From: Candidatus Bathyarchaeota archaeon
GTDB taxonomy: Archaea; Thermoproteota; Bathyarchaeia; Bathyarchaeales; Bathycorpusculaceae
Direction: 5' to 3'
DNA length: 64,000 nucleotides
Assembly: GCA_963768425.1 (NCBI GenBank)
Contig: CAVYHV010000030.1
Coordinates: 81,902-145,901, forward strand
Under the pieces are notes generated by a model that was given only the letters and a program-made list of their open reading frames with translations, had not been told where the DNA came from and searched no databases. A program made the position numbers and the translations under genes. Of this stretch, positions 12,856-31,208 are shown in pieces (position 1 is the first letter of the stretch; the number at the start of each line of letters is the position of its first letter).

Positions 12856-14075
12856 GCTTTCCAGTGCTCCAACGCAGCTTTTAGTTCGCTGTGGGTTTTC
12901 GCGTACTCTTCCAACGTCATTCCTTTCAAAATAGCATCAACTGCTTGCCGCATTGCTTTTGAACCGGCTACTGTTCCGTTGGGGTGTCCGTGGATTCCGC
13001 CTCCTGCTTGGATGACCACGTCATTGCCGAAGGTTTCAAGCAGTGCTGGAACTAAGCGCGGGTGTATTCCTCCTGAAGCAACGGGTATAACAGGCTTCAA
13101 CGTGCCCATTGATGATTTGCATGCATCGATGTTTTCGAGGACTTCAGCTTTGGTTTCACTCATTTTACCAACAACCGTGCCAACGTGGAGTTGGTCAACC
13201 CCGATTACCCGTGCAACAGTGGCAATGGGACGCATGGCGATGCCGTGTTGCTGGTTCTTGGTGAATGCGGCGTGCCCTGCCCTGTGTGCGTGGATGACAA
13301 GTTTGAAGTTTTGATCTCTCAATGTTTGCAATGATGACCAGCCCGTCGTCAAGATATCAACCATAACGTATTCGCCGCCCTGAGCCACAACTGCTTCCGC
13401 ACGTTTCAGCATGAGGTTGGTTTCGGCGGTGATGTTGACCATGTAGACTTTGCGTTCCCCTGTTTCCTGCTGCGCCTTGTCACGGCTTTCCAGTGTCTGT
13501 GAGAGTCGTTCTTCGAAGGGGTTGAAGGTTTGGCTGCTTAGGTTTTCATCGTCTTTTACGACGTCGCATCCGCCGCTCCAAGCGTTATAAGCGACTTTAG
13601 CGTGGTCTATTGTTTTCAATCCGAGTTTAGGCTTGATTATTGTGCCGACCAGTGGGCGGCTTGGAATTTTTAGAAGGTTGCGGATTCCCGCTATGCCAAT
13701 GGCGGGTCCTTTGAAGCTGCCCAGTAAGGCTTTTGGGAAATGAATGTCGAGGAGGCGCAGGTTTTTGAGTGCTTTTAGCCCAAAGACGTTACCTGCTACG
13801 CTGCTCAGTATATTGGGCATGTTTGCGGGTTCAAAAAGTTCTATTGGGTATGCGATTTTGATTACATTGCCTTCTATGCCGAAAACGTGGGCTGCCAGAC
13901 GTTTCACGTAGGGCTTCTCGGTTGTGAGTTCAGTCCACGTGCCGACTGAGCTTTCTGCGGCTACCCCGCCTGCGGCTTCTTGGAGGCTTATGCCTTCGGG
14001 TTCAACGTAGAAGGTGCAGGTTAGGTCGGTTTCTTTAGGTTTGTAAGTTGGGTCGATAAAGTCAAGGTATTTCAC
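12852..14075 (-). CDS. rbcL: ribulose-1,5-bisphosphate carboxylase, form III
   Basis: AAESSVGTW, GTIIKPKLG, KDDE, HAHRAGH, GKM, ASGG, QAGGGIHGHP. Confidence 0.97.
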   Translation of the reverse strand: MKYLDFIDPTYKPKETDLTCTFYVEPEGISLQEAAGGVAAESSVGTWTELTTEKPYVKRLAAHVFGIEGNVIKIAYPIELFEPANMPNILSSVAGNVFGLKALKNLRLLDIHFPKALLGSFKGPAIGIAGIRNLLKIPSRPLVGTIIKPKLGLKTIDHAKVAYNAWSGGCDVVKDDENLSSQTFNPFEERLSQTLESRDKAQQETGERKVYMVNITAETNLMLKRAEAVVAQGGEYVMVDILTTGWSSLQTLRDQNFKLVIHAHRAGHAAFTKNQQHGIAMRPIATVARVIGVDQLHVGTVVGKMSETKAEVLENIDACKSSMGTLKPVIPVASGGIHPRLVPALLETFGNDVVIQAGGGIHGHPNGTVAGSKAMRQAVDAILKGMTLEEYAKTHSELKAALEHWKA

Positions 14076-14113
14076 AGTTTTCCACTCTTAGGCTAGGTTC
14101 AACTGGTTTTTCC

Positions 14114-14130
14114 TTAAAATCTTTAACTAT
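14114..14130 (+). repeat. left island boundary (attL-like), 17-bp direct repeat
   Basis: TTAAAATCTTTAACTAT, identical to 37511-37527. Confidence 0.85.
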
Positions 14131-14206
14131 CACTAGCGTTGCCTAGCTAAAAAGTCTGACACCATTGAAGAAAGAGTTCAAGAAGAAATGTTTGGCGTTG
14201 ATCAAG

Positions 14207-14473
14207 TTAAGTCTCTACTATTTTTATGCCTTCATCAGTAAGCATGTAATATACATGGTCGTCTCTAAGTCTCTTGAAAGTGTTATCGCTCTTCTTAACG
14301 TAACCTCTGCGCCAGAGTGTTTGTAGAATTTTATGTACTTCTTTGTGTGGCTTGTTCAAATGAGTTTCAATTGTTGTATACGTGCAGCCTCTATAGGGTG
14401 ATGAGTTAGCATAGACAGCATGCAGCAACATCAATTCAGCTGTAGTTATTTGCACCTCATCTTCTTCTGTCAT
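14207..14473 (-). CDS. winged-helix DNA-binding protein
   Basis: VHKILQTLWRRGYVKK...YMLTDEG. Confidence 0.7.
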   Translation of the reverse strand: MTEEDEVQITTAELMLLHAVYANSSPYRGCTYTTIETHLNKPHKEVHKILQTLWRRGYVKKSDNTFKRLRDDHVYYMLTDEGIKIVET

Positions 14474-14644
14474 GCGTCATCACTGAGTATGTTTCAGCAA
14501 TTGATTCAGATTACTTAAGCTTTATTACCAATTGCAGTACTCCGCAATTTGTCGTACACAAAAACAATTGCAGCAATTGAAGAATGATATTTACCATTGC
14601 AATGCAGAATTAGTATTCCATTAGTCATTTAGGAGTTGATTACA

Positions 14645-14907
14645 ATGAGCAAAGACATGGCGGGTTCTGTCATGGATATGATTAAGACACCCTTAGGGTT
14701 CGCTCTAATGTTGATTATCTTAGTCATACTCGCGGGAATTACAGCTGCAACTGCAATTTCTGGACAATTGACTGCCGCAGCAGTGAGAGTTAGAGTCTTA
14801 CGACTCAACCACAAATGCTGCTGGCTTCATTACAATAATTGTGATTCTCGCTGCAGAGCGTGCAAAAATACTTTGCACGCGCAGATTCAACCTTATTGGA
14901 AAATAAG
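14645..14907 (+). CDS. small two-TM protein with a frameshift near 14790; candidate spindle-virus-type major capsid protein
   Basis: MSKDMAGSVMDMIKTPLGFALMLIILVILAGITAA... continues in another frame as SYDSTTNAAGFITIIVILAA...FNLIGK*. Confidence 0.4.
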
Positions 14908-15568
14908 GACGAGATTACAATTGTTAGTAACTTCCTTCTCCTTTCTTAGTCGCCCTTGACTTTTAGATTCTTGACGTGAGAATGTGTGTCGTTTTCTTGA
15001 GCAATTGTCCAGTGGCTCAAGCTTAAGTTCAGAGAACTTTTTGAGTAAATCTCTCTGCGTTTCAGTGCCCATGACGCATGTAGTACATGGTAGATGCTAG
15101 TACCAGTTGTTCTGTGTTAATTAATTGTACATCAGTGTAGACTCAACAACTGTCAGCGCACGCTTGAATGTTGTAAGGCTTCGAAACATGTGGATTAACA
15201 TGGTTTATGTTTATCAAAATCACATTCTTTAACATTTTCCGTATGTAAAAAACGAAATCTCGCTGTACCTTTCATATGTTAAAATATAATTAGGGTTGTA
15301 GAGCGTCTAAATAGCGGTGTCACTTTGTATACGCATATTTTCGTACACAATTGCTGCGAATCTCAGCTCACTCCTCAATAAGCTCACTCACTCAGTTGCA
15401 GACACAATCACAATTGATGCAGAAGGCACACAGTTGTTCACTCCAATTGAGCAGCATTCCTTTAGTGTTGACAGAAACTCGCTCGAACTCGCAGAACTTC
15501 CCTTCAATTGTAGCCAACCACAGCAATTGTACGTATGCATTAAAGGCTATACTCTATCATCTATCTAA

Positions 15569-15785
15569 CATGACAGCTATACTATGCAAGGTATGTAGAG
15601 CTACACTACATCTAGCATCAGTAGATGGAGTAGAGTTACATTGGCAGTCAATACGTTGTCCATGCGGAGCACTCTTATCTGTGCATGTGACAATTGATAC
15701 AATGTACGTAACAGTAGTAGACTCAAAGCTAAAGCACAAAACAATTGAGTTCGAGCAATTAGAGTCCGAGCTTCAAGCAGTCTGA
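15569..15785 (+). CDS. zinc-ribbon protein
   Basis: MTAILCKVC...IRCPCG; internal ATG of ORF 15351..15785. Confidence 0.55.
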
Positions 15786-15804
15786 CATATTGGTGATTTG
15801 AGCG

Positions 15805-16149
15805 CTAAATGCTTCTTGCTTCATGACATGCTTTATGGAAGAGTTTAAGTTTGTGCACAACGAACGTATCTGATTCTACTAGTTCAATCTTGCACTTATC
15901 GCATGCCATTGGTAAGTTGTTGCGCGCTCTGTAATTTCTAATTGTAACGTAGCGCAAATGCTTAAGGCGTTTGCGCTTAAAGTGTGGATGCAGCTTAGCA
16001 TATTTTCTTCTGCACTCGTGAGAACAAAAATGCCCTTCAGTAATCATCAACAATTTTCCGCACGTCATGCAATTGAAGCGTTCAATTGATTGAGCAATTT
16101 CGAGCTTCTTTGCATCTTCAGCAATTGCATATTCTGGTTCAGCCAACAT
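15805..16149 (-). CDS. double zinc-finger protein
   Basis: CMTCG...FCSHEC and CDKC...HKAC. Confidence 0.65.
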   Translation of the reverse strand: MLAEPEYAIAEDAKKLEIAQSIERFNCMTCGKLLMITEGHFCSHECRRKYAKLHPHFKRKRLKHLRYVTIRNYRARNNLPMACDKCKIELVESDTFVVHKLKLFHKACHEARSI

Positions 16150-16854
16150 AACTCTAAATTGTTTGTTGCGATTTTAAAGGATTCCATGTTTGCAAATACA
16201 TGTAATATAGTGATTACGTTATGCAAAAAGTTGCAAGCATGATAAGTCATTTATTCTTTCAAAGCAATTATTCTCTTGTATGTCAACCAGTGTAGAAGTA
16301 TCTAAAGACTACTCTACTCTCCTAAATGGCTGCATACCTGTGACTGTGCTCAATACGACGCAATTCTAGCTCAATTGTTTTAGTAGAGCACAGTTACAGA
16401 TGTGGATAATTATTTAAACCCTGAAGTCCAATAGTATTGTTGAGCTAGATGAGAATGAGTCGTATAGGACTTCAAAATAAATTTTAACTTCTCAGCAGAA
16501 AGAATCAGCGTCTGAGAGAACTTATAGAGTCAATCTGCGGTTCACACGTTCGCCATTCATTAGCCAATGCAACAGTGTCATTCAACTTTTTGTAGAAGCA
16601 AAAACAGCAGAAGATTTTCTGTCAATTGCTAAGAAAACTGCTCTTACAGTGCGTTATGAACATGATAGCAACGTCCATATGCTTCACATCTATTTTAGCA
16701 AGCACGACATCAAGTTAGCTTACAGAGCTTTCAACGAAGCAAAACAAGAATACTATCGTCAACATACTCATGAATCGTTTGTGTTCAAAGTCAAGCTGCA
16801 TGAGTATGACGTCACGCTAACAAAACCAATTGCAAAGGGAGACTCAGATGCATA

Positions 16855-17433
16855 ATGTCTGAGCGCCTAACTAATTATGAACGTTGCATTTGCTTAGAAG
16901 ATCCGTTAGCAGACGCATACAAAGAATTGCAATTTAGCGTTACTCGCAATCATCAGACAGGTAAAGGTTGTGACTTCTATACTGACAATTCTGAAAATGA
17001 AGCTAAAAATGTCAAAGATTGCATATACGTCAACGACCCAGAGTGGTTTATGTCTCATGTCTGTGACAGATATGCAAAAGCAATGCCATTGATAGGAGTA
17101 CTGGCTAACTCTAGTAGACGTAGAATACTGACTATCTCGTTCAACGATATCACTAACCCAATAGTGCTAGACTACATAGCGTACTTCAACATACACATTC
17201 TAGAGGTAGGAGAACAAGTAGGCAAAGATAAGGCGCAACAACGTAAAGTAAAGAACATATTAAAGCAAAAAATCTTAGCGCTGTATATGCCATTAGAGAA
17301 AAGAGAGAAATGTGGTGTAGCGAATAGTCAAGACGCGTATGAAGAATGGCGTGAGCATCAATTTGGAGACGCATTTGATCATGCTCTATCTATTCAGCGT
17401 GAATATGAACGTGAATTTCTTTATCTATCTTAG
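16855..17433 (+). CDS. hypothetical protein, possible PD-(D/E)xK nuclease
   Basis: GCDF...EAKN spacing fits D...ExK. Confidence 0.5.
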   Translation: MSERLTNYERCICLEDPLADAYKELQFSVTRNHQTGKGCDFYTDNSENEAKNVKDCIYVNDPEWFMSHVCDRYAKAMPLIGVLANSSRRRILTISFNDITNPIVLDYIAYFNIHILEVGEQVGKDKAQQRKVKNILKQKILALYMPLEKREKCGVANSQDAYEEWREHQFGDAFDHALSIQREYEREFLYLS

Positions 17434-17626
17434 TTTTTCTAGTCTATAGTAGGCAGTGTCGCTGTTCGTCTTTCTGGACGCGCGCACTTTTTTGACAATT
17501 TTTATTCAGTCTGATAACTCACAGTTTTGCGCGCTTGAGCATGAGCAATCATTCATTCAATAATGTGCATAAGTCTTAAAACTAAAACTTGCTAATCACT
17601 AAAGAGAAAGTAAGAGTTGACGCCTA

Positions 17627-18112
17627 ATGACTAACTTGGTTAATTTACTTACGCTAGAGAATTTGACTTTACTAATTGCTGTTTGGGGCGCAGTTCTATC
17701 GACCTATAAAGTTCTTTCTGACCATTCAAAGAATACTCGCAAACTAAAAGTTGAAGTTGCTTATGGTTTTCTAAGTCAAGGGAATACTGTCAGTGCAGCC
17801 ACAATTAGTATTACAGCAATAAATACGGGATTTAGAGACATCACCCTAAACTCAATGGGTTTTGTGTTTCCAGACGATAGAAAAAGCATTATGTTAGAGC
17901 CTCAAGGTAACGTAACTTTCCCTCACACGTTGACTGAAGGAAATAACTGCCTTGTTTGGAAGTTTCAAAGACAATTTGCGAGTGAATTAAAGAAGAATGG
18001 ATACAGTGGCAAGGTCAACGTCAGAGGATATTTTCAAGATGCAACAGGAAAGATGTTTACAAGCAAACCGATGACTTTTGACATTGAACAAGCTCTATCT
18101 CAAACTGATTGA
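17627..18112 (+). CDS. hypothetical protein with N-terminal TM anchor
   Basis: 161-aa ORF, LLIAVWGAVLS hydrophobic segment. Confidence 0.7.
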   Translation: MTNLVNLLTLENLTLLIAVWGAVLSTYKVLSDHSKNTRKLKVEVAYGFLSQGNTVSAATISITAINTGFRDITLNSMGFVFPDDRKSIMLEPQGNVTFPHTLTEGNNCLVWKFQRQFASELKKNGYSGKVNVRGYFQDATGKMFTSKPMTFDIEQALSQTD

Positions 18113-18146
18113 TTAAAAATCTGCAAAACTAACGCGCTACTCGCTA

Positions 18147-18518
18147 TCACTTCTTAACAATCTCTATTGCTACGTTTGGTTGTGTGACATTATAGTAAAC
18201 CGTGTAAGTTGCATTTAGCACAACGTGCGCATTCACTGCTAAGGTTTCATTAGCGAGAAACGTTCTGCCATCTGCAAATGTCATTGATACACCATTGCCT
18301 ATGCCATTGGGGTAGCTGCCATTAGCGTAAGAAAATGCTAGATATGAATACGCATTCGCAAGATAACCTGTGTACGTAGCAAAACCATTGTTTTGAGAAT
18401 TTCCATTAGAAAGAAAGTTGTTATTTTGAAGCAACCCAGATGTGTAGACGCTGATTGCAATTGCGATAATGGCTATGGCAACTAATGTGATTACTTTTGT
18501 GGTTCTTTGCACGCGCAT
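18147..18518 (-). CDS. secreted/anchored hypothetical protein
   Basis: Signal-like N-terminus; Asn-rich with N-x-S/T sequons. Confidence 0.7.
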   Translation of the reverse strand: MRVQRTTKVITLVAIAIIAIAISVYTSGLLQNNNFLSNGNSQNNGFATYTGYLANAYSYLAFSYANGSYPNGIGNGVSMTFADGRTFLANETLAVNAHVVLNATYTVYYNVTQPNVAIEIVKK

Positions 18519-18592
18519 AATGAACTATTATATCTCAAGACTTAAGTTCTTTTCGGTGAGCTAAGTTCTTAATTGCGTGCTATGGTGTTTTG

Positions 18593-18896
18593 AATGAGTC
18601 AAGCTCATAGTCAATCAGGGCTTGAACTGTGAAGATCTCGAAGGTGCTAGACATTCCATCAGTAAAGATTTTGCTGTTTATTTGGGAAAAAGAAGAAGTA
18701 AGGTACACTGACTTAACAAAACTCATTTTCTAGCAGAAGAGCATTATCCAGTAATCTGAAAGAATTGGAGAGAGAAGAACTAGTCAAAAGGAGAATCGTG
18801 ACAACCAAGCCAATCCAAGCACATTATTCTCTTACTGAGAAGGGTCAGAAAATTGCAAAAGGCTTTGACAATTTGAGAGTTTTACTTCAGCAATGA
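18593..18896 (+). pseudogene. HxlR-like winged-helix regulator, frameshifted
   Basis: Fragments read NLKELER / LVKRRIVTTKPIQAHYSLTEKGQKIA. Confidence 0.6.
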
Positions 18897-19153
18897 TTTG
18901 AAGACTGAAGATGAGTTAGCATGGCGCAACAAACGCAATGAAAATACGTGATTTTGACATACATAAGTTTACAATAATTAAATACTGAAAAAGCTAAACT
19001 GTTGATGCGTAAGTGCAATTGTTGGAAATGCTGTAGTCTTCTTGACTCTAACTTCTCTACAGTGTTTTTTGAGTTGCAGCAATTGATGGTTGTTTCTTTC
19101 TTGCGCTGTTGAATTCGACAGTCTTTTATGGCAGAAATTCAGAATAGAATCTT

Positions 19154-19558
19154 ATGAACTTCAATGGAATAATAAGCAATCTTGCTCCCGCAGCAATTAT
19201 ACTTGGAATTGTTTTTATTATTCTTGTAGCTTTTGTGAGAAAGCATCAATTCTCTAAAGCAGCAAGAGAAGCAATTGAGTCACAAGTATCTGGATGCTTA
19301 GTGAACGCTATAGTATGGGAAATACTTGCAATTGCAGCAATTTTGTTATCACTTCAAAATGTTAAACTTTCAAATGCGTATTTGCAAGTTGTAGGCGCTA
19401 ATAGTGTAAGTGCTGTGCTTTTTCCTTTGTCATTCGTTATTGTGCCAATGACTTTTTCAGTTCATAAGGCATACCCTCGTTATGATTGCAGAATACTTGC
19501 AATAGTAATTTTTATTGTAGCTGCATTTGTTCTTGGACTTTGTTATTATTACTTTTGA
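19154..19558 (+). CDS. four-TM membrane protein
   Basis: Four hydrophobic segments. Confidence 0.7.
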   Translation: MNFNGIISNLAPAAIILGIVFIILVAFVRKHQFSKAAREAIESQVSGCLVNAIVWEILAIAAILLSLQNVKLSNAYLQVVGANSVSAVLFPLSFVIVPMTFSVHKAYPRYDCRILAIVIFIVAAFVLGLCYYYF

Positions 19559-19702
19559 CAATAGCGTTCTATCTAGTTCATGCTTGTAGCGTCACTCGCG
19601 CAATGCAGCTTTAAAAGATATTTTCAATAGGCAATGAAGCAGATTATTCTATTGTGGAGTTTGCTCTCTTAAACCCCCACGAAAGTAGTGCAGCAAATAC
19701 GG

Positions 19703-19738
19703 CTGTGAGAGTGGAAGTGATTCCAACCACTCTCACAG
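19703..19738. other. 12-bp perfect inverted repeat (hairpin)
   Basis: CTGTGAGAGTGG-N12-CCACTCTCACAG. Confidence 0.75.
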
Positions 19739-20042
19739 TTGAGAGGAATAAACATGGAGCTGACATTTCAACAATACTGCGAATTAATTGAGCATCTGAT
19801 TAATGCGCAAAATCGCAAAGAAGCATCCAGAACTACCGTCACAATTGATGCTGAAATTAACTTAGAAATTGACAAGAGAATGAAAGCAATAGGACGAAGA
19901 GTAAAACGCACAGTAAGACTTTGAAACATACTGTTGAAGTAGCATTTGTAATACTTGCTAAGTTACAGCAAGAAATGTTAGTCGTTTCTAATACATTTGA
20001 TTGAATGTTTACTTCTGTATGCTAGTATTACAGATTGCACGC

Positions 20043-20080
20043 TCTTTGCAGTCAGGGATACGTATATAATTATTACAGTT
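20043..20080 (+). promoter_or_regulatory. duplicated promoter-like motif (second copy 22519-22556)
   Basis: TCTTTGCA-N5-GGATACGTATATAWTYATTACAGTT, 31-35 nt before the starts at 20116 and 22588. Confidence 0.6.
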
Positions 20081-20115
20081 CTCTATGTTTATTTACACTA
20101 AGGACGCAAAAACAT

Positions 20116-20628
20116 ATGAATGTAAAAAAACGAATCATACTTACATTTGTTATAATGGTTGCAATTGTAGGAAACTTGCTTGCAGTAAGCATAGTTGCAA
20201 GTGCAATTGGATTGACTGATATTAAACTAACATCACCAGCTATCAGCATCTCTTACCATAGCAACATTTCATATTCTATTCCTAATCAGCCAATGAGCTT
20301 ATGGGGGTACATATCAACTCCTGACGCGGGAAACGTATTTCTTGAAGTCACAATGACAATCAAGAACAATGGTTATAGCAGTTTTCCGCAGCCATACCCA
20401 AGTATATTCTACGTTATAGCTAACGGCGTTCACTATTTGTATGATGCTACACACACAGCAGCAATTGGCACCATGGTTGCAGAAAATATGTTTGGAATGT
20501 CTAATGGTGACACATACACTGAAACAGTCGTGTTTCAAGTTCCATCAACAATTGCTTCTTTCACTATGCATTGTCATCAAACAAGCTTTACGCCATTCAA
20601 CATTGTTTTCAATCAAATAAGTGCATAA
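20116..20628 (+). CDS. DUF4352-like Ig-fold surface protein
   Basis: Signal/TM, PDAGNVFLEVTMTIKNNG, VVFQVP. Confidence 0.7.
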   Translation: MNVKKRIILTFVIMVAIVGNLLAVSIVASAIGLTDIKLTSPAISISYHSNISYSIPNQPMSLWGYISTPDAGNVFLEVTMTIKNNGYSSFPQPYPSIFYVIANGVHYLYDATHTAAIGTMVAENMFGMSNGDTYTETVVFQVPSTIASFTMHCHQTSFTPFNIVFNQISA

Positions 20629-20957
20629 GTAGATAGCACTAAGTTTGCAGCAATTTTGAATAGTTGCAAACATGCTCTTGTTAGTCATTATTTGTTAAAA
20701 TAGCAAGTTTATGAAGTTGTTTTCTCAATTGGTGGCTGCATAAGCCTTGTAGTTTTAAATACGCTATTGATTATATTAAATTTGAGGCAGACGTGCTTGC
20801 GTAAAAAGAAGAATACGCGCAGAAACATTCGCATAAGAGTTGATGACACACACAGCAATGAATATCATCGTCTGTATATGCAACGCTATAATGCTAAGAT
20901 TCGTGGCAAACGCGTCAAACCTCGTGGCAAATATAAAACAAAGAAGAAGGCGTAAAG

Positions 20958-22001
20958 ATGTCTTACAAGAAAAAGAAAACTCGGTTCTTCAAAGACAACC
21001 AAAAACGAACTCGCATAATACCAGGGTGCGGTGACCAAAGAGCATCATTGTATGTTGATTCAAGCCACAGCGCAGCTTCAACTTTACATGAGCAAAGACT
21101 TGGTCAGCGCATAAGAGCAGAGCACATTCCATTGCAGAAAGTTAATGCTACTAAAGATGGCGTTGCAGTTGTTGTTCCTGAGCGTGAAGTTGACTTGAAG
21201 CTGATTACTGCTAAGACAGATGACGTCGTTATTCCACTTAATGACCATGAGACGCAAGCACAATTAGATGAGCGTGCTCAAGTGTTTGTGGAAGCATATC
21301 ACAGAGGCGAAGTTATCCCTCCAGTTCTTCTTCACAGATTACCAAATGGCAAATTAGAAGTAGTTGATGGACGCAGTCGTGCGCGTGCATACCAATTGTT
21401 GGGTGTCAAAGAGTACGCAGCAAATGAGAATGGAATATTAGATGCATTTAACAATTCTCGCTTTGGCACAAGTCACAGCGCAAATTCAATTGCAAGCAAA
21501 GCAAGCAAAATAAATGCAGCAGGGCAGAAAGCGCTAAATGTTGGTGCATTCCACGTCGGACGACAACTTGGCAAATCTCAAACAATAGTAAAAGCAAACA
21601 CTGCAGTACATCATAAAATTGGTGCAATAAAAAGCAAAGTTAACAACAAAATTGATCCGCACACAATTAAAACCAATATAGAAGAGCGAACGAAAGCAGC
21701 AAAAGAGCGCACTCGAATAGCAAATGAAAGAATTGCAAAAGCTGAGAACGCTGAGCAAGACGCAAAACTATTCAATGACTCACGTACAGCTTCTATGAAT
21801 GCAAGAGCAGCAAGTAAGGAGCGACTTGATAATTTAGCTAAAGCACGCAAAGCTAAACTTGACAAAGCAGCTAACAGCGTACACATCTCAGCAAATCCTG
21901 AGTTCACCAAAGCAAAAACGTACGCAGTGAAAGCAAAGAGTTATGCTGATAGTTCTAACTCGAGAAGAGACTCAGCAAGGCAGTCACATAGAAGACGTTG
22001 A
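20958..22001 (+). CDS. ParB/Srx-domain protein with long Lys/Ala/Arg-rich tail
   Basis: IPPVLLHRLPNGKLEVVDGRSRARA fits the ParB GxxRxxA motif. Confidence 0.7.
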   Translation: MSYKKKKTRFFKDNQKRTRIIPGCGDQRASLYVDSSHSAASTLHEQRLGQRIRAEHIPLQKVNATKDGVAVVVPEREVDLKLITAKTDDVVIPLNDHETQAQLDERAQVFVEAYHRGEVIPPVLLHRLPNGKLEVVDGRSRARAYQLLGVKEYAANENGILDAFNNSRFGTSHSANSIASKASKINAAGQKALNVGAFHVGRQLGKSQTIVKANTAVHHKIGAIKSKVNNKIDPHTIKTNIEERTKAAKERTRIANERIAKAENAEQDAKLFNDSRTASMNARAASKERLDNLAKARKAKLDKAANSVHISANPEFTKAKTYAVKAKSYADSSNSRRDSARQSHRRR

Positions 22002-22033
22002 CCTTTTCAATGCTCAATGGGAGTGCACTTTAA

Positions 22034-22396
22034 TTGGGCAAAGAAATAAGCAGAACAATAAACTTTTTCAGATATCCCAATCGTCAGCAGCAATTTGATT
22101 ACGTCCAACCTCAGCCAATTGCTCAAAGAGAAACAATTGTACGAAGAGACAGCAGCAACTTGGACATTCACAATGAAAGAATTAGACTGCGTCAACTTAA
22201 AGAGAAAAAGACACATCACATGATAGAAATCTACGCATACTTACGACATCAAGGATTCTCAGCAATTGCATCTACACACAAATTGATTCAACTTTTCAAA
22301 GATACTTCTCTTGCAATTGAAATCTCTAACAAATTTGAAGCTGCAATTAGCAAGATGTCAACGTCAATTGCAGTTGCACAATTGGAGAAGAAATGA
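22034..22396 (+). CDS. hypothetical protein
   Basis: 120-aa ORF co-oriented with neighbours. Confidence 0.5.
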   Translation: MGKEISRTINFFRYPNRQQQFDYVQPQPIAQRETIVRRDSSNLDIHNERIRLRQLKEKKTHHMIEIYAYLRHQGFSAIASTHKLIQLFKDTSLAIEISNKFEAAISKMSTSIAVAQLEKK

Positions 22397-22587
22397 CTAA
22401 CATTCCATTCATTTCTACGTTAATGATTTCTACTCTATCTACCCCATTGTAGACTATGCAAATATGTTACTATCACTTGTATGGTCAATTGTTAGATTCG
22501 CATGCTGCAAAGAGCGTGTCTTTGCAACCCTGGATACGTATATATTCATTACAGTTATCTTAAATCTTAAGACAGAAGGACAACAAA

Positions 22588-23019
22588 TTGAAAAAAGATG
22601 ATGGTACAATTGCAGAAGTTGGCAACAATTACATTATGCTAAATGATTCTAGAGATAGCATAATAATTTTCTTTTGCATGACTGGAGTAAGTGCAACTGT
22701 AGATGAAGAAGAATTCAAGAATCTTGCAGACATATTTGCATCTGCGAAGAAGCTTTTAGATGACGACAGAATTTCAGTTGCAAAAATAATTGCGTGCAGA
22801 GAAGAACAAACTGAGCAATGCTTTAGCAATTTGCACTTTGATAAAGGAACATGCAGAGAAACACCGTGTAGTCCAGACATGTTTTGCAAACTCTTTATTG
22901 ATGACTGTTCTATGACGTTTGACATAGCATTTGAAGACTTAGACGACATCATCAAGCTGTTTGCAATTGCAATGAAAGCACTCAACAAGAAAGAAGAGTC
23001 AAACATTGCAGTCTCGTGA
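22588..23019 (+). CDS. acidic hypothetical protein
   Basis: Follows the duplicated promoter motif. Confidence 0.6.
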   Translation: MKKDDGTIAEVGNNYIMLNDSRDSIIIFFCMTGVSATVDEEEFKNLADIFASAKKLLDDDRISVAKIIACREEQTEQCFSNLHFDKGTCRETPCSPDMFCKLFIDDCSMTFDIAFEDLDDIIKLFAIAMKALNKKEESNIAVS

Positions 23020-23024
23020 GGTGA

Positions 23025-23288
23025 ATGCAATTGAAAGTAGAAGCATTTTGTAATTACTTGAGAAATAAAATGGCTGCTGACGCTGCAGTGTATGCATTTA
23101 TGAATGGATTGTCTAAAGCAGAAGTTGATGCTGCAATTGCAAGTAAAAGTGATGATGATGTATTAAATGCTTACAGACATTCTAAGTACGATGGACACGA
23201 ATACATTAGCAAAAGTGAGCTTGAAACTTTAATTAAGAAGTCAGCAAGCTATGAGCAAATTGAAGACGCTACTGGCAAAATGGTGTAA
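23025..23288 (+). CDS. hypothetical protein
   Basis: GAGGTGA RBS directly upstream. Confidence 0.65.
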   Translation: MQLKVEAFCNYLRNKMAADAAVYAFMNGLSKAEVDAAIASKSDDDVLNAYRHSKYDGHEYISKSELETLIKKSASYEQIEDATGKMV

Positions 23289-24039
23289 TTGCATGACTAC
23301 GTATATGCTCTTTGCGACTACGGAAACGAATATATGGAAAAACTTACTCTATAGCTAATTGCTCACTTCGTCTAACTTTCAAAAAAACTGCTTAGGAAAT
23401 GTTTGTCAATTTCTCCAATTGCAATTGGAGAAGGTGACTGAGACTACATGTCTTCGCATCTTCTACAAAGTCTTAGAGCCATGACGACTCTTACGCCATA
23501 GTTCGTTATTCCTTTGTAGATAAGTTTAGTTGGCTTTTCAAGTCCGCAATTGTTGCAATGAGTTCCATTGCAATCGTCATACCAACCTGCTAATGCTCCA
23601 GATGGAAGAATGTTTGAACGATTTGACAATTGTTGTTTAGACATTTTGATTGCCTTCTTTTTGCTTTGGGAATGTTTGACGTTTTTGAGAATCTTTCACC
23701 AGAAATTGTTTCGTTTTCTTCTGGGTTACGCCCTACTTCAGGATGTTACTGTAGAAAGAAAAGCCAGTCCTTGTCCTTAGCTTACTGGGGATGGGTGAGC
23801 CAAGATTGTCCAGAGAAGAGGTCTTGGCTTCTGGGTTTGAGGTTTTGAGTTTTTGATTCTTTAGCTTCACCTGTCGGTGTTTGACAAGCATAGATAGATC
23901 ACACGCCTATTGAACAGATGCCATTGAGCGTGTAATATTGACTACTGTAAGACACACATACAGAAGAATTATTGCAATTGTAACATTCACTTACACAAAA
24001 CTTAGAATCTGATAACTCAAAAACCCAATGGAATGTTTG

Positions 24040-24939
24040 TCATTTTCGCTTGCGAAAAAGTTTCTCACCATTAAAGTCTACGACAAACTCAAAACCTGAC
24101 TCAACCAATTTCTGAGCTTCAACAATTGTATGTGCAATTGCAGAAGAATACTCATCACTTTCAAAGTTAATCATTTGAATGTAAATTAGAGTGTTGTTGA
24201 TTGACTTGTGCCCAAGCAGTCTCATGACGTGAAGAATATCTTTCGTCTTATGATACTCAATTGTAGCTCGCCAATGTCTGAGACTGTGATAATGAATTTG
24301 TGCAAGTCTTGGATTACCTAACGCAATTGCTGCTGCACGCTTTTGATGATTGAAGTTGCATATGACTGATTGACCGCTACCCGTACCAAAAACATATTTG
24401 TTATCTTTCTTCAATTGCATCAGCATAGCACACAACTTCTCAGATATTTTGAATTGACGTGCGTTGCTGTGCTTCTCAGGATTATTGAGCAAAACTATTC
24501 TGCTCTCGAAGTCTATGTCAGTCCATTGGAGAGAAAGAGCTTCTCCGATACGCATAGCTGTCTCTTTCAACAATTGCAGAATCGTAGAAGTTTTCTTTCC
24601 ACAATACGCAATTAGCTGGTCTATTTCTGATTCTAATGGAATGAATGGAAGCTTATGTGTAGCTCGATACTTAGGTGGATTCCATTCTATGTTATTCATT
24701 GTTGCGTATTTTCTGTACGCTGCTACAACTGTTACTTTAGTCGCTGAACTCCATGTTGATTGCAATGCAATTGCAGATTTCACTGACTCTCCATCGCAGA
24801 GTTTTGCGCCTGATTTCACTAACATTTCTAAGAACTTAGAGTAGTTAGTTATCGTTCTGCTGCTATACCCATTCCTTTGCAATTGGAGAGAGAACTGCAA
24901 CAGGCTGCTTGTCTGTAGATTTGAGTACGCCTTTTCCAT
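24040..24939 (-). CDS. tyrosine recombinase/integrase 1
   Basis: MRIGE, PEKHS, HSLRH, LLGH, TLIY catalytic residues; C-terminal FRKRK tail. Confidence 0.95.
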   Translation of the reverse strand: MEKAYSNLQTSSLLQFSLQLQRNGYSSRTITNYSKFLEMLVKSGAKLCDGESVKSAIALQSTWSSATKVTVVAAYRKYATMNNIEWNPPKYRATHKLPFIPLESEIDQLIAYCGKKTSTILQLLKETAMRIGEALSLQWTDIDFESRIVLLNNPEKHSNARQFKISEKLCAMLMQLKKDNKYVFGTGSGQSVICNFNHQKRAAAIALGNPRLAQIHYHSLRHWRATIEYHKTKDILHVMRLLGHKSINNTLIYIQMINFESDEYSSAIAHTIVEAQKLVESGFEFVVDFNGEKLFRKRK

Positions 24940-25041
24940 ACAATTTAATTGAGCATGTATTCCTTTTAAGACGTTCTACTTGTGCATGTGAATCAATTGC
25001 AACAAAATATAAGATAAAATTGGATTGTATGTATTTTAAAT

Positions 25042-25073
25042 CTTTAACTATCCCTATTCGAGCATAGTTAAAG
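25042..25073. other. 32-bp dyad recombination-like site 1
   Basis: CTTTAACTAT-CCCTATTCGAGC-ATAGTTAAAG; perfect 10-bp arms, ~100 bp upstream of integrase 1. Confidence 0.85.
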
Positions 25074-25172
25074 AAACTCCTCCTATAATCACCCAAGGAA
25101 AAATCAATCAAAGAACTACAGGTTGCAATCTAGTGGCAAATCATATTAGGAATTTTTTATAAATAGCAGGTT

Positions 25173-25508
25173 ATGACTCTCCTGAGTAGTCCAACAGCAA
25201 CTCCGTTTGACAATATGCAACAACAAGTTCTTATCTCACAATATTTGACATTTGCCCTAGTCTTAGGCATAGCTGTTCTGCTTGCTGTGTCAAATCTCTA
25301 TTTTTACGCACCAAGATATAGGAAATGGGTCGGGATAGCAGGTATTTCTCTTGGAGCAATGGGAAGCGCTATCTGCATTGGAGTTATACTTCTTACCGTT
25401 TCAAACAATGGTGCGGATCTTGGATTAGGTGTCATTACCCTTTTTGTCATTGAAATTCCAGTTATGTGCGTTGGAGTCTTATCTGTAAAGAACAGGAAAA
25501 AGACATAA
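25173..25508 (+). CDS. three-TM membrane protein (cassette-like)
   Basis: Flanked by the exact direct repeat TATTCGAGCATAGTTAAAG at 25055 and 25521. Confidence 0.75.
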   Translation: MTLLSSPTATPFDNMQQQVLISQYLTFALVLGIAVLLAVSNLYFYAPRYRKWVGIAGISLGAMGSAICIGVILLTVSNNGADLGLGVITLFVIEIPVMCVGVLSVKNRKKT

Positions 25509-25520
25509 TCAGACGGAAGT

Positions 25521-25539
25521 TATTCGAGCATAGTTAAAG
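25521..25539 (+). repeat. half copy of the dyad site (part of spacer plus right arm)
   Basis: TATTCGAGCATAGTTAAAG, 12 bp after the stop of 25173..25508; no left arm. Confidence 0.85.
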
Positions 25540-25584
25540 TAAGCCTTCATATGTAAAGCAGAGAAGCAATTGAAAGAAGAATTC

Positions 25585-25641
25585 GGTCAAGAAACTTTGA
25601 CTAAATTCAGTCAAGGAATTTTTACGAATAGCCTTTTATCG
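25585..25641 (+). repeat. AGTCAA triple-box plus TATA module, copy 1
   Basis: GGTCAA-GAAACT-TTGACT-AAATTC-AGTCAA...GCCTTTTATCG. Confidence 0.85.
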
Positions 25642-25663
25642 ATAACCATTCGTACTGATTATT

Positions 25664-26884
25664 ATGGGCTTTAAGAAAACTTCCGCTTTGGTGCTTATTG
25701 GGTTATTTCTGATCTCTATTGTCAGCTTTCAATCTGCAATTGTGAAAGCTCAAGCCAGAACGCTCATTGTTCCAGACCAGTACCCAACTATTCAAGATGC
25801 TATAGGCAATGCAAGTTCAGGAGATACAGTGTACGTCAAAGATGGAACATACAATACAGGGTTTAATATTGATAAATCATTATCGTTAGTTGGAGAAGAC
25901 CCAGAAAAGACTATCATTCGTGGAATCGAACGATACCCATATTGGCAATATCCAACAATTCAGGTATCTGACGAAAATGTCAGTATTTCAGGCTTTACAA
26001 TAACAAACTCCTGGGAAGCCATCGACATCTACAACGTTAATGACGCTTATTCAATTAGTATTACTGGTAACAACATTGTAAAAAATTTGTCTGGAATCGG
26101 AGCAGGGGGCGTGAATTTAGTTATCTTTGGGAATAACATAACTGATAACTCGAAAGGCGGGATAAGTTTTGACGGTCAAAACAGCATCATTTCTAATAAC
26201 TACATTTACCAAAACTCATTTGGAATATACACGTCTGAGATTAAGAATGTGACCATCCAAGACAATACTATTTCAGATAACGGAGGAAACTCGAATTCGG
26301 AGCAATTTGGTGGACTGGATCTTCAGAGTTTTGCTTCCATCTTTGTTCATGGAAATAATATCGAAAATAACGTTGGGGATGGTATCTTGCTTGAGGGCAA
26401 CATCAAAGCTTCAATCCACAATAACAATATAACGAACAACACTGTGGGCATAAAACTTGATAATTATCTTCTCGGAGGTATCTTCCATAGTGTGGGCACA
26501 GGCAATGAGATTTACAACAACAACCTGATCGACAATATCAAGAACGCTTTAGTAGTGCATACAGACGAAAATGATGCCACATGGAATGGATACATAGGGA
26601 ATGGAACAGATGTTGTTTCATGGGATAGCGGTAAGGTTGGCAATTACTGGAGTGATTACAGCGGTCAAGGAACTTATGTTATTGACCAAAACAATACTGA
26701 CGAGCATCCGCTAAGTCAACAAGTTCACATTTCTACAATAACACCTACAATACCTAATTTGCTTTCCATACTAAACGGTGCAATTATCGTGGTTATTGTA
26801 GTTGCATTAACTGCCATTGTCGCATTATTACTTTACAGAAGGCATCGAAAGACCACTAACTCCAGACAATTGACACCTCACTAA
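25664..26884 (+). CDS. NosD/right-handed beta-helix surface protein with C-terminal TM anchor
   Basis: VPDQYPTIQDAI, repeated I.GNNI, GNYWSDY, TM plus RRHRK. Confidence 0.9.
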   Translation: MGFKKTSALVLIGLFLISIVSFQSAIVKAQARTLIVPDQYPTIQDAIGNASSGDTVYVKDGTYNTGFNIDKSLSLVGEDPEKTIIRGIERYPYWQYPTIQVSDENVSISGFTITNSWEAIDIYNVNDAYSISITGNNIVKNLSGIGAGGVNLVIFGNNITDNSKGGISFDGQNSIISNNYIYQNSFGIYTSEIKNVTIQDNTISDNGGNSNSEQFGGLDLQSFASIFVHGNNIENNVGDGILLEGNIKASIHNNNITNNTVGIKLDNYLLGGIFHSVGTGNEIYNNNLIDNIKNALVVHTDENDATWNGYIGNGTDVVSWDSGKVGNYWSDYSGQGTYVIDQNNTDEHPLSQQVHISTITPTIPNLLSILNGAIIVVIVVALTAIVALLLYRRHRKTTNSRQLTPH

Positions 26885-27289
26885 TTGAAATCGTAGTTGA
26901 ATGTTTGATGATTTTCACTATGATTTAGACCTTTGAGATGATTGAGGTAACTTAGACCCATGTCTTGAGACTAGTCATAAAGTATACCCCAACGATTGAC
27001 TATGAAGAAATAACTTGTTAATTATTTTAACATTCCAATAACAAAAGAGACTTAGAGAATAATAGATATTTAGTCACAACTTGGAATGTTGAAAGGTCTT
27101 GAAATACTGTGTTTAACATGACCCATGTTGATTAAAATGCATTCTTTTCCATTGAAAAAAGAATTTTTGAACGCTTCTCTCAAAGACTTTCATATGATAA
27201 ATTATAATTAGCTGTGTAGTGTGAGCGAAGGACTGTGTCATTTAGAATTATTCTTCCCAAACCAAAGAGAGCCTGATTGACTCAACAAC

Positions 27290-28120
27290 TTGTTGCTAGA
27301 CCCTTATCAGATTACCGTCAACAGTGTAGATAGGACTACTACCCTGACTGATATTTCCAGAAATCTAAATCCTAGCAGACACCATACTAATTTAAAAACC
27401 AAAAGGGCAGATATTGAAACTCCAAAGAGGGGGGTTGACCCTCAAAGGAGTTGGACAATAATAGTTAGACAATACAATGAATATAAAACCTATCAATTCT
27501 GCAGCAATGCAGTTTATGACAATTGGTGCATGGGTTTCATTGACTATAAAGAGCTGAAAGAAGAATTTGTAAAGTTTCCTCTTCCGGATGTCCCACAAAG
27601 ATATAACAAAATGGTGGAGCTAGCTACCCTGTTCTTCCTTCCAGTCATCATAAGAGAGTTGCTAGAACCTTTTTATGAGAAGATTGAAGTCTCTTGTAAC
27701 TACTTTCCATCCACAGGTCCGGACATAATTGTTTTTTCAAAGGATAGTCTCTTGTTAAAGATGGAGGTATTGAATTGGTGGATACAGTCATATCTTTCAG
27801 AGGGAAGGGCCTCAGGCATAAAAGACAATCTCAAGGGAGCACGCTACAAGGTCTTGTATGTAACATCCGACAAAAACTTAACAACATGGACTATGAATAG
27901 TAAACTCCTTTCAGGTCTCAAGAAAGCGCTCAAAGGAGTTAATATTTACTACTCACGTTACCAAATACTTCCAATTACTTATTTTGACTATCTTTTCAAG
28001 ATTGATTACAGATTTGCTAAGGATAGAGCAATCTTCAATGAGAAAACCATCAAACACCAAAAGATTCGATTAAAGAGGTTCTTTGAGCAAATAGGGATTA
28101 TTCCTCTTGTAAAGAGATAA
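27290..28120 (+). CDS. hypothetical protein, possible PD-(D/E)xK-fold nuclease
   Basis: GPDIIV...MEVLNW (Lys position replaced); start uncertain. Confidence 0.5.
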   Translation: MLLDPYQITVNSVDRTTTLTDISRNLNPSRHHTNLKTKRADIETPKRGVDPQRSWTIIVRQYNEYKTYQFCSNAVYDNWCMGFIDYKELKEEFVKFPLPDVPQRYNKMVELATLFFLPVIIRELLEPFYEKIEVSCNYFPSTGPDIIVFSKDSLLLKMEVLNWWIQSYLSEGRASGIKDNLKGARYKVLYVTSDKNLTTWTMNSKLLSGLKKALKGVNIYYSRYQILPITYFDYLFKIDYRFAKDRAIFNEKTIKHQKIRLKRFFEQIGIIPLVKR

Positions 28121-28397
28121 TAATAGAATAATGGCTAGACAGAGATTATCCTTGTTCTGCCTATTTCAATATTTGATTAACCCTTTCTAAAAGGAATTGT
28201 TCTCATTTGAAAATAAGAGGTTTCAATTCCGCCCTTTCCAAAAACAAGACACAATCCTCTTGTAAATATGGTATTATGTTTGATTATTTCTTTCTGTTCC
28301 CAATCTGGTTAATGGTTTCTGACTTTGTGATAGTGGGTGGTTTTATGTTGTTTGACCTATCTAAGAAACCTAAATTATTCAACTGTTTGATAGGTTA

Positions 28398-29300
28398 TCA
28401 TTTTCTCTTTCTAAAAATCTTGACTCCATCAAATTCTGTAACGTACTCGAATCCAATTTCAATCAACTTCTGAGCTTCCTCAACTGTTTTGGCAACTGAA
28501 GAGGTGTATTCATCACTCTGTTCGAACGCAACCAGATGTGTGTAGATGAGGGTGTTGTTGATGGATTTGTGTCCTAGGAGGTTCATGACATGAAGAATGT
28601 CTTTGGTTTTGTGGTATTCAGTGGTCGCCTTCCAATGTCTTAATGTGTGGAAGTGGATTTGAAGGAGATGAGGATTCGCTAACGCAACTGCTGCTTTCTT
28701 TCTCTGAAACCTGAAGTTACAAATTGTAGATTGTTTACTTCCTATTCCAAAAATAAACTTCTCATCTTTTTTTATTCTAAGTATCATGGAAGATAGTTTT
28801 TCAGATATCTTAAAACAACGAGCATTACTATGTTTCTCTGGTCTGTTGAGTAGGATTACTCCTCTTTCCAAGTTGATGTCTGTCCACTGTAAGTCTAACG
28901 CTTCTCCGATCCGCATTCCTGTTTCCTTTAGGAGTTGAAGAATTGTAGAAGTTTTCTTTCCACAGTAGGCAATCAGAGAATCAATTTCAGATTCAGTGGG
29001 AATGAAGGGTAACTTTGTTGTTCTCTGGTACTTGGGTCTAACCCATGATATGTTGTTCATTTCCGCATACTTAGCATAGGTGGCAACCACAGTCACCTTT
29101 GTGGATGGACTCCAATCCGATTTAAGAGAGATGACTCCTTTGACAGACTCAGGGTCACTCAAGTCAGCCCCATATCTTACTAACAATTCAAGGAACTTGG
29201 AGTAATTCAATATAGTTCTCTCAGAATAACCATCCTTCTTGAGTTTCCAAGAAAACTGAATTATTCCATCGTTCTCATGATTAGAGTATGTAAGTTCCAT
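28398..29300 (-). CDS. tyrosine recombinase/integrase 2, paralog of integrase 1
   Basis: MRIGE, PEKHS, HTLRH, LLGH, TLIY; colinear with 24040..24939. Confidence 0.95.
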   Translation of the reverse strand: MELTYSNHENDGIIQFSWKLKKDGYSERTILNYSKFLELLVRYGADLSDPESVKGVISLKSDWSPSTKVTVVATYAKYAEMNNISWVRPKYQRTTKLPFIPTESEIDSLIAYCGKKTSTILQLLKETGMRIGEALDLQWTDINLERGVILLNRPEKHSNARCFKISEKLSSMILRIKKDEKFIFGIGSKQSTICNFRFQRKKAAVALANPHLLQIHFHTLRHWKATTEYHKTKDILHVMNLLGHKSINNTLIYTHLVAFEQSDEYTSSVAKTVEEAQKLIEIGFEYVTEFDGVKIFRKRK

Positions 29301-29400
29301 AGTATTTTTAAGTAAGTTATTCCTTTTAAAATATTCTATATCTGCATGTCTTTCAAGTGATAAAAATATTAGTTAAAATTGGATTTTATTAGTTTTAAAT

Positions 29401-29432
29401 CTTTAACTATACCTATTCGAGCATAGTTAAAG
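29401..29432. other. 32-bp dyad recombination-like site 2
   Basis: CTTTAACTAT-ACCTATTCGAGC-ATAGTTAAAG; 31/32 identical to site 1. Confidence 0.85.
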
Positions 29433-29488
29433 AAACCCCTTCCGCAATCAACCAATGGAAAACAAAGAGACAATTGGAAAAAGAGTTC

Positions 29489-29546
29489 AGTTAAGAAAGT
29501 TTGACTTAGCTTAGTCAAGAAACCTGTACAAGAACGCTTTTATCGG
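29489..29546 (+). repeat. AGTCAA triple-box plus TATA module, copy 2
   Basis: AGTTAA-GAAAGT-TTGACT-TAGCTT-AGTCAA...GCTTTTATCG. Confidence 0.85.
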
Positions 29547-29568
29547 CAGACTAATTCCAAACGTTGTT

Positions 29569-30180: not shown

Positions 30181-30217
30181 GTCAAGGAGCTTGCTTCTAT
30201 AGCTATGAATCGAAACA

Positions 30218-30275
30218 AGTCAAGAAACCTTGACTAAGCCCGGTCAAGAAATCAGTACAAGAGAGCTTAAATATA
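30218..30275 (+). repeat. AGTCAA triple-box plus TATA module, copy 3
   Basis: AGTCAA-GAAACC-TTGACT-AAGCCC-GGTCAA...GCTTAAATA. Confidence 0.85.
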
Positions 30276-30312
30276 AATGAAAAGTGCTGCAACAGCAAGA
30301 ACGATCAAAGCC

Positions 30313-31002: not shown

Positions 31003-31128
31003 TCTTTGCACCCGCAGGAAAAAACACAATATCTGGATTAAACTTCACTGGATAACCCATGCAAGACTTTCACCAAAGACATAGAGTAGATTGGTCGCAC
31101 AGCAACTATAACCCACCCAATAACGTCT

Positions 31129-31185: not shown

Positions 31186-31208
31186 CCTGCACTTGCTTAA
31201 CACTAAAC

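Follow-up and report, generated by a model that had tools for sequence, protein, structure and literature searches.

A hyperabundant CAATTG palindrome in a small integrative element of Bathyarchaeia

E1 is an integrated element of 10,921 bp in the genome of a Candidatus Bathyarchaeota archaeon (GenBank assembly GCA_963768425.1). It occupies positions 14131-25051 of the 64-kb stretch analysed here, which we call the window (positions 81,902 to 145,901 of contig CAVYHV010000030.1). E1 is filled with the hexamer palindrome CAATTG, which is enriched 8.7-fold (about nine times) over the dinucleotide expectation, and the chromosome that flanks the integrated element is untouched by this signature. 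We propose, with moderate confidence, that CAATTG is a hyperabundant 6-bp palindrome comparable to HIP1, the highly iterated palindrome (HIP) of cyanobacteria, and that it has evolved as a DNA-level trait of a small family of tyrosine-recombinase integrative elements in one Bathyarchaeia genus, in which it would be a selected, dispersed recognition site.

The CAATTG excess and its confinement to E1

The window contains 77 CAATTG, compared to a mean of 29.75 in 100 dinucleotide shuffles (standard deviation 5.41, maximum 45). Fifty-nine of them fall within E1, and the rest of the window holds 18, where 24 are expected at Markov order 1. A first-pass annotation made from the sequence had counted 58 copies between 14498 and ~24998; the recount is exact (14498-24999), with an extra site at 14368. 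The same annotation had put the GC content of E1 at ~36%, which is close to the measured value, slightly higher at 0.380 over 10,921 bp. The elements, repeats (attachment-like, or att-like) and genes on which the comparison relies are the following, CC/GG being the odds ratio of this dinucleotide:

14131..25051, integrated element E1, 10,921 bp, with direct repeats, a sharp composition change at 14-25 kb and 59 CAATTG
14368..24999, span of the 59 CAATTG, mean spacing 183 bp, 17 intergenic and 42 in open reading frames (ORFs)
16833..19015, site-poor segment, 1 CAATTG in 2.2 kb, which holds an HxlR-like remnant and the gene of a 192-aa protein
25052..29410, tandem element E2, 4,359 bp, with integrase 2, 4 CAATTG and CC/GG 1.09, used as internal control
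14114..14151, plus strand, left att-like repeat, core AAATCTTTAACTAT, one of a three-copy repeat family
25035..25072, plus strand, middle att-like repeat at the E1/E2 junction, 10,921 bp from the left copy
29394 (start), third att-like repeat copy, 4,359 bp beyond the middle copy
24040..24939, minus strand, integrase 1, a tyrosine recombinase (PF00589, E 8.9e-21), 8 CAATTG, CC/GG 0.48
28398..29300, minus strand, integrase 2 (PF00589), 0 CAATTG, CC/GG 1.00

The expected number of CAATTG in E1 rises from 3.63 at Markov order 0 to 6.76, 13.0 and 23.25 at orders 1, 2 and 3. The order 4 expectation (50.4) is uninformative, because the pentamers on which it is based are themselves dominated by CAATTG. 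None of the 4096 hexamers scores higher than CAATTG at orders 1 and 2 (z of 20.1 and 12.8, respectively), and only one does so at order 3, where CAATTG has a z of 7.4. The excess thus persists after correction for lower-order composition, the step at which the annotation had considered that it might vanish. CAATTG is the single exception among the 64 hexamer palindromes of E1: palindromes that share its AATT core or the form CANNTG, such as GAATTC (2 vs 3.6 expected), CAGCTG (2 vs 4.7) and TAATTA (8 vs 5.2) are not enriched, and none of the one-mismatch neighbours is clearly depleted (CAGTTG 7 vs 4.8, CAACTG 4 vs 4.3, TAATTG 11 vs 5.8).

E1 and E2 are tandem integrations, since three att-like copies delimit them and each interval ends with a tyrosine recombinase gene, that of integrase 1 in E1 and that of integrase 2 in E2. 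A contig from a public sequencing run crosses the junction between the two (24976-25263) with zero differences. E1 has the hallmarks of a tyrosine-recombinase integrative element, with an integrase at one end, flanking att repeats and a foreign composition (GC 0.38 vs 0.44).

The host assembly (2,958,400 bp in 33 contigs) contains 1042 CAATTG, i.e., 0.35 per kb and an observed/expected ratio of 0.76, which makes host DNA about 15 times poorer in this palindrome than E1. Of ~2810 five-kb segments taken along the genome, 15 hold at least 9 sites and all 15 overlap E1 (maximum 32); elsewhere the maximum is 8. The host is therefore not equally enriched, which was the other finding that the annotation had named as contrary to its claim, and the excess is restricted to the E1 locus (92-111 kb of the contig), not spread throughout the genome of the cell. 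E2 does not have a CAATTG excess either, despite the same att and an integrase whose protein is 68% identical to integrase 1. The host counts, the E2 control and the comparison of the two integrases all agree with the initial view that the bias is specific to the element.

The annotation had also remarked that the sites are often TGCAATTG/CAATTGCA. This is the case for 27 of the 59 sites, but the longer sequence is not an extended core: only 14/59 sites make an 8-bp palindrome, as many as chance would give, and the core is thus strictly 6 bp. The partial preference for TGCAATTG/CAATTGCA flanks reflects the general richness of E1 in GCA/TGC; the flanks vary from site to site and show no consensus beyond the core. 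The largest gap between sites is 1631 bp (p 0.004 vs random placement). The most site-dense ORF is 22034-22396 (16.5 per kb), in which the CAATTG at 22263, 22314 and 22365 are exactly 51 bp apart; this spacing hints at a helix motif, [S/T]-x-A-I-[A/E], that recurs every 17 residues of an orphan protein.

A second signature accompanies the first. The scarcity of GG/CC that had been noticed by eye is real: the CC/GG odds ratio is 0.52 in E1, compared to 0.97 genome-wide, with sharp edges at 14-25 kb, and the odds ratios of GC (1.58) and CA/TG (1.34) are raised. Several tetramers are rare in E1 (GATC 6 vs 32 expected, TCGA 11 vs 27.5, GGCC 0 vs 6.1, CCGG 0 vs 2.9) and behave as avoided targets of type II restriction-modification, whereas CAATTG is enriched. 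The host also avoids GGCC (0.38), and part of the tetramer depletion of E1 therefore looks like ordinary restriction avoidance. The predicted proteins of E1 have about half the Gly and Pro of those of neighbouring genes. The CC/GG depletion could result from avoidance of restriction or of a CRISPR (clustered regularly interspaced short palindromic repeats) protospacer adjacent motif (PAM) of the CCN type. A simple script found no CRISPR array in this metagenome-assembled genome; the only CRISPR-like candidate (contig C9, 228735-229080) consists of 4.3 tandem copies of an 84-bp unit that seems to be coding, and was rejected.

Sites in genes and in relatives of E1

The pressure toward CAATTG acts on DNA and not on peptides. 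In E1, non-coding sequence holds 5.1 sites per kb and coding sequence 5.5. Among the 42 sites in ORFs, 29 are in the frame xCA-ATT-Gxx, which encodes [A/T/S/P]-Ile-[V/A/D/E/G], 10 are in CAA-TTG, which encodes Gln-Leu, and 3 are in xxC-AAT-TGx; this is the order of increasing cost for the protein. When the proteins and the per-gene codon usage are kept fixed, 16.1 +/- 3.1 sites are obtained in coding sequences, and 5.2 +/- 2.2 after shuffling the codon order. Both randomisations are far below the 42 observed, so that synonymous spelling and amino-acid order are both bent toward CAATTG. Indeed, CAATTG is the spelling of 10 of the 17 Gln-Leu pairs and of 29 of the 37 [APST]-I-[VADEG] triplets. 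The annotation was thus right that the bias is imposed on coding sequence.

The integrases give a direction to this change. Integrase 1 has 8 CAATTG and integrase 2 has none, as had been noted; 11 outgroup integrases have 0-1 CAATTG each and CC/GG of 0.81-1.15, and at the eight site positions of integrase 1 one outgroup shares one. Compared to integrase 2 and the outgroups, integrase 1 thus shows the derived state. The annotation had suggested aligning the two genes by codon to see whether sites arise by synonymous change, and part of them do (CTC to TTG at a conserved Gln-Leu), but replacements are found as well (Lys/Glu to Gln, Val/Thr to Ile). Among the underlying base changes are G>A, C>T, A>C, C>G and T>G, with up to 3-4 substitutions per site. 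Since the substitution types are mixed, a single-type mutational bias such as deamination cannot yield these sites, and the simple form of a strong element-specific mutational bias, one of the options initially listed, is unlikely: the gains needed transitions and several kinds of transversions.

When 332 genomes from the family of the host were searched at the DNA level, the matches were mostly to the integrase and a few short stretches, and 12 matching places were inspected. One of them is E3, an element of ~7.7 kb (L209, 4700-12400) which adjoins housekeeping genes in the genome of a different species of the same genus and carries a tyrosine recombinase different from that of E1. E3 contains 31 CAATTG vs 4.1 expected, CAATTG being its top hexamer (z 13.3). 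Its CC/GG is 0.68 (0.62 in the core), it has 9 GATC vs 22 expected, and its flanks are normal. The proteins common to E1 and E3 (BLASTP) are only three, with 33%, 25% and 25% identity; they are encoded by adjacent genes in the same order, the module 15351-17433 of E1. The other 11 loci that share short DNA with E1 (L200-L208, L210, L211) are not enriched.

The signature is also present in L035, a 1.5-kb fragment among the matches listed in a metagenome scan, which encodes an N-terminus 51% identical to that of the ParB-like protein of E1 (20958-22001). L035 has 5 CAATTG in 1485 bp vs 0.97 expected, and CC/GG 0.72. The signature is a heritable trait of the element lineage, as E3 and L035 share it. 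The positions appear to turn over: none of the 9 alignable sites is shared between E1 and E3 homologues, whose proteins are only 25-33% identical, and the parts of L035 that contain its sites have no alignable counterpart in E1. What appears to be kept is the density, about 4-5.5 sites per kb or one per ~185-250 bp, and not the position.

No other bearer was found. Profiles of two of the shared proteins matched 4 and 36 of the 332 genomes, and only E1 and E3 are dense; weak matches to the 192-aa profile (G308, G415) and 18 weak Zn-finger matches are not enriched. In viral contigs, neither the ParB-like protein, used singly or as an alignment, nor an alignment of the 192-aa protein picked up a relative, and none of 34 integrase-related loci is enriched in CAATTG. 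A triple-site pattern matched 27 of 401 Bathyarchaeia genomes, and of the 27 loci only E1 is dense; the sensitivity of this pattern is low, as E3 would also have been missed. Over IMG/VR (at least 120 loci), the top matches of the same pattern are collagen-like GPIGP coding repeats and tandem repeats. The parent records of two short leads (L150, L151) are ordinary in density (41 CAATTG over 82.7 kb and 7 over 6.95 kb). The contigs L079 and L120 have 26-34 CAATTG in 4 kb which come from Gly-Pro-Ile-Gly-Pro coding repeats, with spacings that are multiples of 9; such collagen-like repeats are a trap for any screen based on motif density.

What could maintain or create the sites

In the proposed reading, selection would maintain CAATTG, which would be recognised by a dimeric sequence-specific protein with the fold of a type-II methyltransferase or nuclease, or by a small architectural protein. 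This reader would act on E1 DNA outside the chromosome, at entry, replication, condensation or packaging, and CAATTG would distinguish the DNA of the element from that of the host. The sites would have been placed where the cost to the protein is lowest, with synonymous codons, and even amino acids, changed where needed. Selection is favoured because the density is equal in coding and non-coding sequence, the near-cognates are not depleted and the gains took several substitutions; a target density under selection would explain this equality better than would a generative process free of constraint. Of the annotation's proposal, a dispersed protein-binding site under positive selection, the recognition site is favoured over chance or composition (the bias being element-specific, heritable and acting on DNA), and the link to the ParB-like protein is not supported. 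The best candidate for the reader is the module 15351-17433, because it is the sole gene content common to E1 and E3, and we infer that the reader would be encoded there:

15351-15785, plus strand, gene of a 144-aa protein
15805-16149, minus strand, Zn-ribbon protein, with Zn-finger leads
16855-17433, plus strand, gene of a 192-aa protein

A more specific version of this reading, to which we give only tentative credit, is that CAATTG is a "barcode" of the element lineage, repeated every 185-250 bp and read by an element-encoded protein (possibly from the module 15351-17433) for condensation or packaging, protective marking or nuclease-mediated exchange; such a barcode would be the counterpart, in mobile elements, of HIP1 or of uptake sequences. 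The pressure would then be strong enough to rewrite an acquired integrase gene, including amino acids. A second pressure, which halves CC/GG and would fit PAM or restriction avoidance, may be linked to it. E1 may be a virus or a plasmid.

Several observations weigh against a selected recognition site. The spacing of the sites in E1 is random-like apart from the 1631-bp gap, with no helical or other periodicity, so that nothing points to an ordered nucleoprotein array. The bearers of the signature, two full elements of a single genus and one fragment, are a small and related sample, in which sequence-directed conversion may mimic selection. A protein that reads or modifies CAATTG was not identified in E1 or E3: profile scans gave no match of any ORF of these two elements to a methyltransferase, restriction or defence family. 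The annotation had also listed a modification or decoy site, and the enzymes that would go with it, a methyltransferase or a restriction enzyme, are thus likewise not detected in E1 or E3. The 192-aa gene of the module has zero CAATTG, and the PD-(D/E)XK lead obtained for its protein in a language-model search has a score of 0.84, below the 0.9 reliability line of the tool; profile searches of this protein against the PDB and Pfam gave only noise, and its structural model has a pLDDT (predicted local distance difference test) of 37.

The most serious competitor, which we consider unlikely, is a conversion or repair drive of the type proposed by Elhai for HIP1, in which a methyltransferase and a Vsr-like short-patch repair nuclease convert near-cognates to CAATTG, the excess being a side effect that nothing but purifying selection on the proteins would limit. 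Such a drive would agree with the turnover of positions at persistent density, with the use of the cheapest reading frames and with the weak PD-(D/E)XK lead for a conserved element protein. PMC4390886 moreover describes a correlation between HIP-type palindromes and cognate methyltransferases in cyanobacteria, and the proposal of a methylation-dependent mismatch-repair model. On the contrary, no one-mismatch neighbour of CAATTG is clearly depleted in E1, non-coding sequence is no denser than coding sequence, and the gains of integrase 1 took up to 3-4 mixed substitutions per site. The drive would also have to act solely on non-integrated copies, since the host flanks are untouched, and neither a methyltransferase nor a Vsr family was detected in E1 or E3. 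The host genome has 6 N6_N4_Mtase matches (specificity unassigned), with four such methyltransferase loci on contigs C24, C17, C31 and C23, and no D12-class match; RestrictionMunI (PF11407) has no match in it, but control genomes were silent too, so that this search is uninformative.

A compositional legacy of a former host that was rich in CAATTG and poor in CC/GG, and that E1 has not yet ameliorated, would account for the GC content of 0.38 and for a dinucleotide signature sharply unlike that of the host. It is nevertheless very improbable. The family of integrase 1 is mostly from Bathyarchaeia (19/34 related loci are so titled) and its relatives are normal in composition, the signature is present in one element each of two species of the genus, and none of the 401 Bathyarchaeia genomes has >4 triple-site matches, which implies that none is rich in CAATTG genome-wide. 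In addition, a gene of the Bathyarchaeia type has moved toward the signature and not away from it, which makes a foreign-host legacy unlikely. The idea that the excess is an artefact of coding or of repeats (a repeated peptide motif, a codon bias or a dispersed repeat family) finds some ground in the three sites spaced by exactly 51 bp in ORF 22034-22396 and in L079 and L120, where coding repeats do give dense CAATTG. We reject it as having next to no chance of being correct: the flanks are diverse, 17/59 sites are intergenic and the excess survives when proteins and codon usage are fixed. A direct-repeat search of the window found no family that covers the CAATTG sites.

The annotation had put forward the basic, ParB-like protein of E1 as a possible binder of CAATTG:

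20958..22001, plus strand, 347-aa protein with a ParB_N/Srx-like domain at about residues 40-168, followed by a disordered linker and, at the C-terminus, by long and basic helices

The domain assignment was sound. It is based on a match to phrog_1033 (E 0.0012) and on a match of the family profile to Noc (7ng0, E 1.3e-4). The family has 74 representatives, and 28 of the 40 that were scanned match PF02195; the protein of the window itself matches ParB_N only via the family profile and the fold. Its model (pLDDT 76.7) gives Foldseek matches to ParB, Noc and Srx, including the pNOB8-like ParB-N 5k5d, which cover only ~80 residues of the N-domain.

That CAATTG serves this protein as a dispersed binding site of the parS kind, in partition, condensation or packaging, is nevertheless improbable. 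The ParB_N/Srx domain with its long, very basic helical tail is in its favour and resembles ParB-parS, Noc-NBS and pNOB8 partition; close homologues are encoded on contigs similar in length to E1 (11,513 and 10,151 bp), and L035 has both a homologue and the signature. However, the model shows no helix-turn-helix (HTH) or other sequence-reading domain after the ParB_N domain, and no ParA partner was found among the E1 ORFs in Pfam and PHROG scans. Canonical parS sites are few and of ~16 bp, unlike the 59 dispersed 6-mers of E1. The gene is site-poor (2 CAATTG in 1044 nt), no homologue was detected in signature-bearing E3 by BLASTP at E 1e-4, which a very divergent one could escape, and the locus of a weak homologue in G328 is not enriched in CAATTG.

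Other features of the window and comparison with known systems

The genes of E1 are almost all orphans. No word-sharing homologues were found for ORFs 22588-23019 and 16855-17433, and the Pfam and PHROG profile scans gave no match of an E1 ORF to a capsid, terminase or Rep family. Two further genes have a putative assignment:

14207..14473, minus strand, 88-aa winged-helix (MarR/TrmB-like) putative regulator, with Pfam E-values of 2e-5 to 1e-3, below curated cut-offs, and PHROG matches to transcriptional regulators
20035-20628, DUF4352-like membrane protein

The site-poor segment contains, at about 18541-18890, an apparent frameshifted remnant of an HxlR-type winged HTH gene, a family call made by eye only; the DNA at 18541-18879 has counterparts of 70-74% identity in several other genera of the family to which the host belongs. 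This suggests that the remnant is newer cargo. The conserved 192-aa gene, also without sites, shares the segment with it and counts against this account of the segment.

Short stretches are shared with E2 and E3. A stretch of 62 nt is 71% shared between E1 (15269-15330) and E2 (27187-27248), and E1 15269-15404 is also 74% identical to E3 (L209, 7925-8060); the 62-nt stretch is possibly a conserved regulatory region exchanged among elements. A 56-nt element, whose copies at 25586-25641, 29490-29545, 30219-30274 and 31130-31185 are 66-77% identical, opens with the inverted repeat GTCAAGAAACTTTGAC and lies just upstream of the genes of secreted or membrane-anchored proteins at 25664, 29569, 30277 and 31146. 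This arrangement resembles a common promoter or operator for a set of surface-protein genes on both sides of the E2 boundary.

The left att adjoins genes at 11920-14075 that resemble, by eye from their translations, those of ribose-1,5-bisphosphate isomerase and type III RuBisCO. The part of the window at 59000-63000 has a GC of 0.57-0.63 vs 0.44 genome-wide, and an Rfam search there found no rRNA or other RNA family; over 13500-31500, Rfam gave nothing at E 0.1 or better. Four DNA runs from 2 studies contain identical E1 contigs, which are short and of low depth, and no excision or circular joint was seen in them; no RNA run is listed as containing E1.

CAATTG is the target sequence of the type II enzymes MunI/MfeI. 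A contiguous 6-bp palindrome is the typical footprint of a type IIP enzyme or methyltransferase, and mobile elements normally avoid such palindromes, since restriction enzymes cut them; in E1 the site is enriched. DNA uptake sequences and Chi resemble the present case in being dense short motifs for recognising own DNA, but they are non-palindromic and enriched across the host chromosome, where CAATTG has an observed/expected ratio of 0.76. Subcluster B3 mycobacteriophages have genomes of roughly 70 kb. In these phages GATC/GGATCC is over-represented ~4-fold genome-wide, which PMC4841201 presents as atypical for phages and unexplained. They are likewise a lineage of mobile genomes with an excess of a 6-bp restriction-type palindrome, but E1 is a small archaeal integrative element with a ~9-fold excess over the dinucleotide expectation, a halved CC/GG and gains that change amino acids.

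The closest parallel is HIP1 (GCGATCGC), which belongs with the alternate highly iterated palindromes of cyanobacteria; for these, PMC4390886 and PMC5861425 debate selection versus repair-driven creation. Like HIP1, CAATTG is a short palindrome that is many-fold over-represented after correction for lower-order composition (in E1 as well as in E3), in coding and non-coding sequence, and that is imposed on coding sequence. HIP1 is 8 bp, GC-rich, present across the genome of the cell and tied to orphan methyltransferases, whereas CAATTG is a 6-bp palindrome with an AT core in elements of ~8-11 kb. HIP1 sites are positionally conserved between genomes, whereas E1 and E3 share none, though only very distant relatives could be compared. 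A full-text literature search found no report of CAATTG enrichment or of a hyperabundant palindrome in an archaeal mobile element, and the portion of the Bathyarchaeia virus paper PMC10848311 that was available mentions no such palindrome.

Compared to HIP1 and to the B3 phages, what differs here is that the palindrome is archaeal, confined to small integrative elements in an unenriched host, in stronger excess over the dinucleotide expectation and coupled to CC/GG depletion, and that a paralogous control gives the direction of the change. E1 is thus a compact and tractable case of the HIP1 problem, i.e., why genomes saturate with one palindrome, in 8-11 kb, with ~20 genes, the E2 control and three candidate genes. 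The combination of CAATTG density and CC/GG depletion could detect further members of the family, whose proteins are nearly all orphans. If the reader protein exists, it would define a new mode of self-marking of viral or plasmid DNA, and it would offer a handle on the mobile elements of uncultivated Bathyarchaeia.

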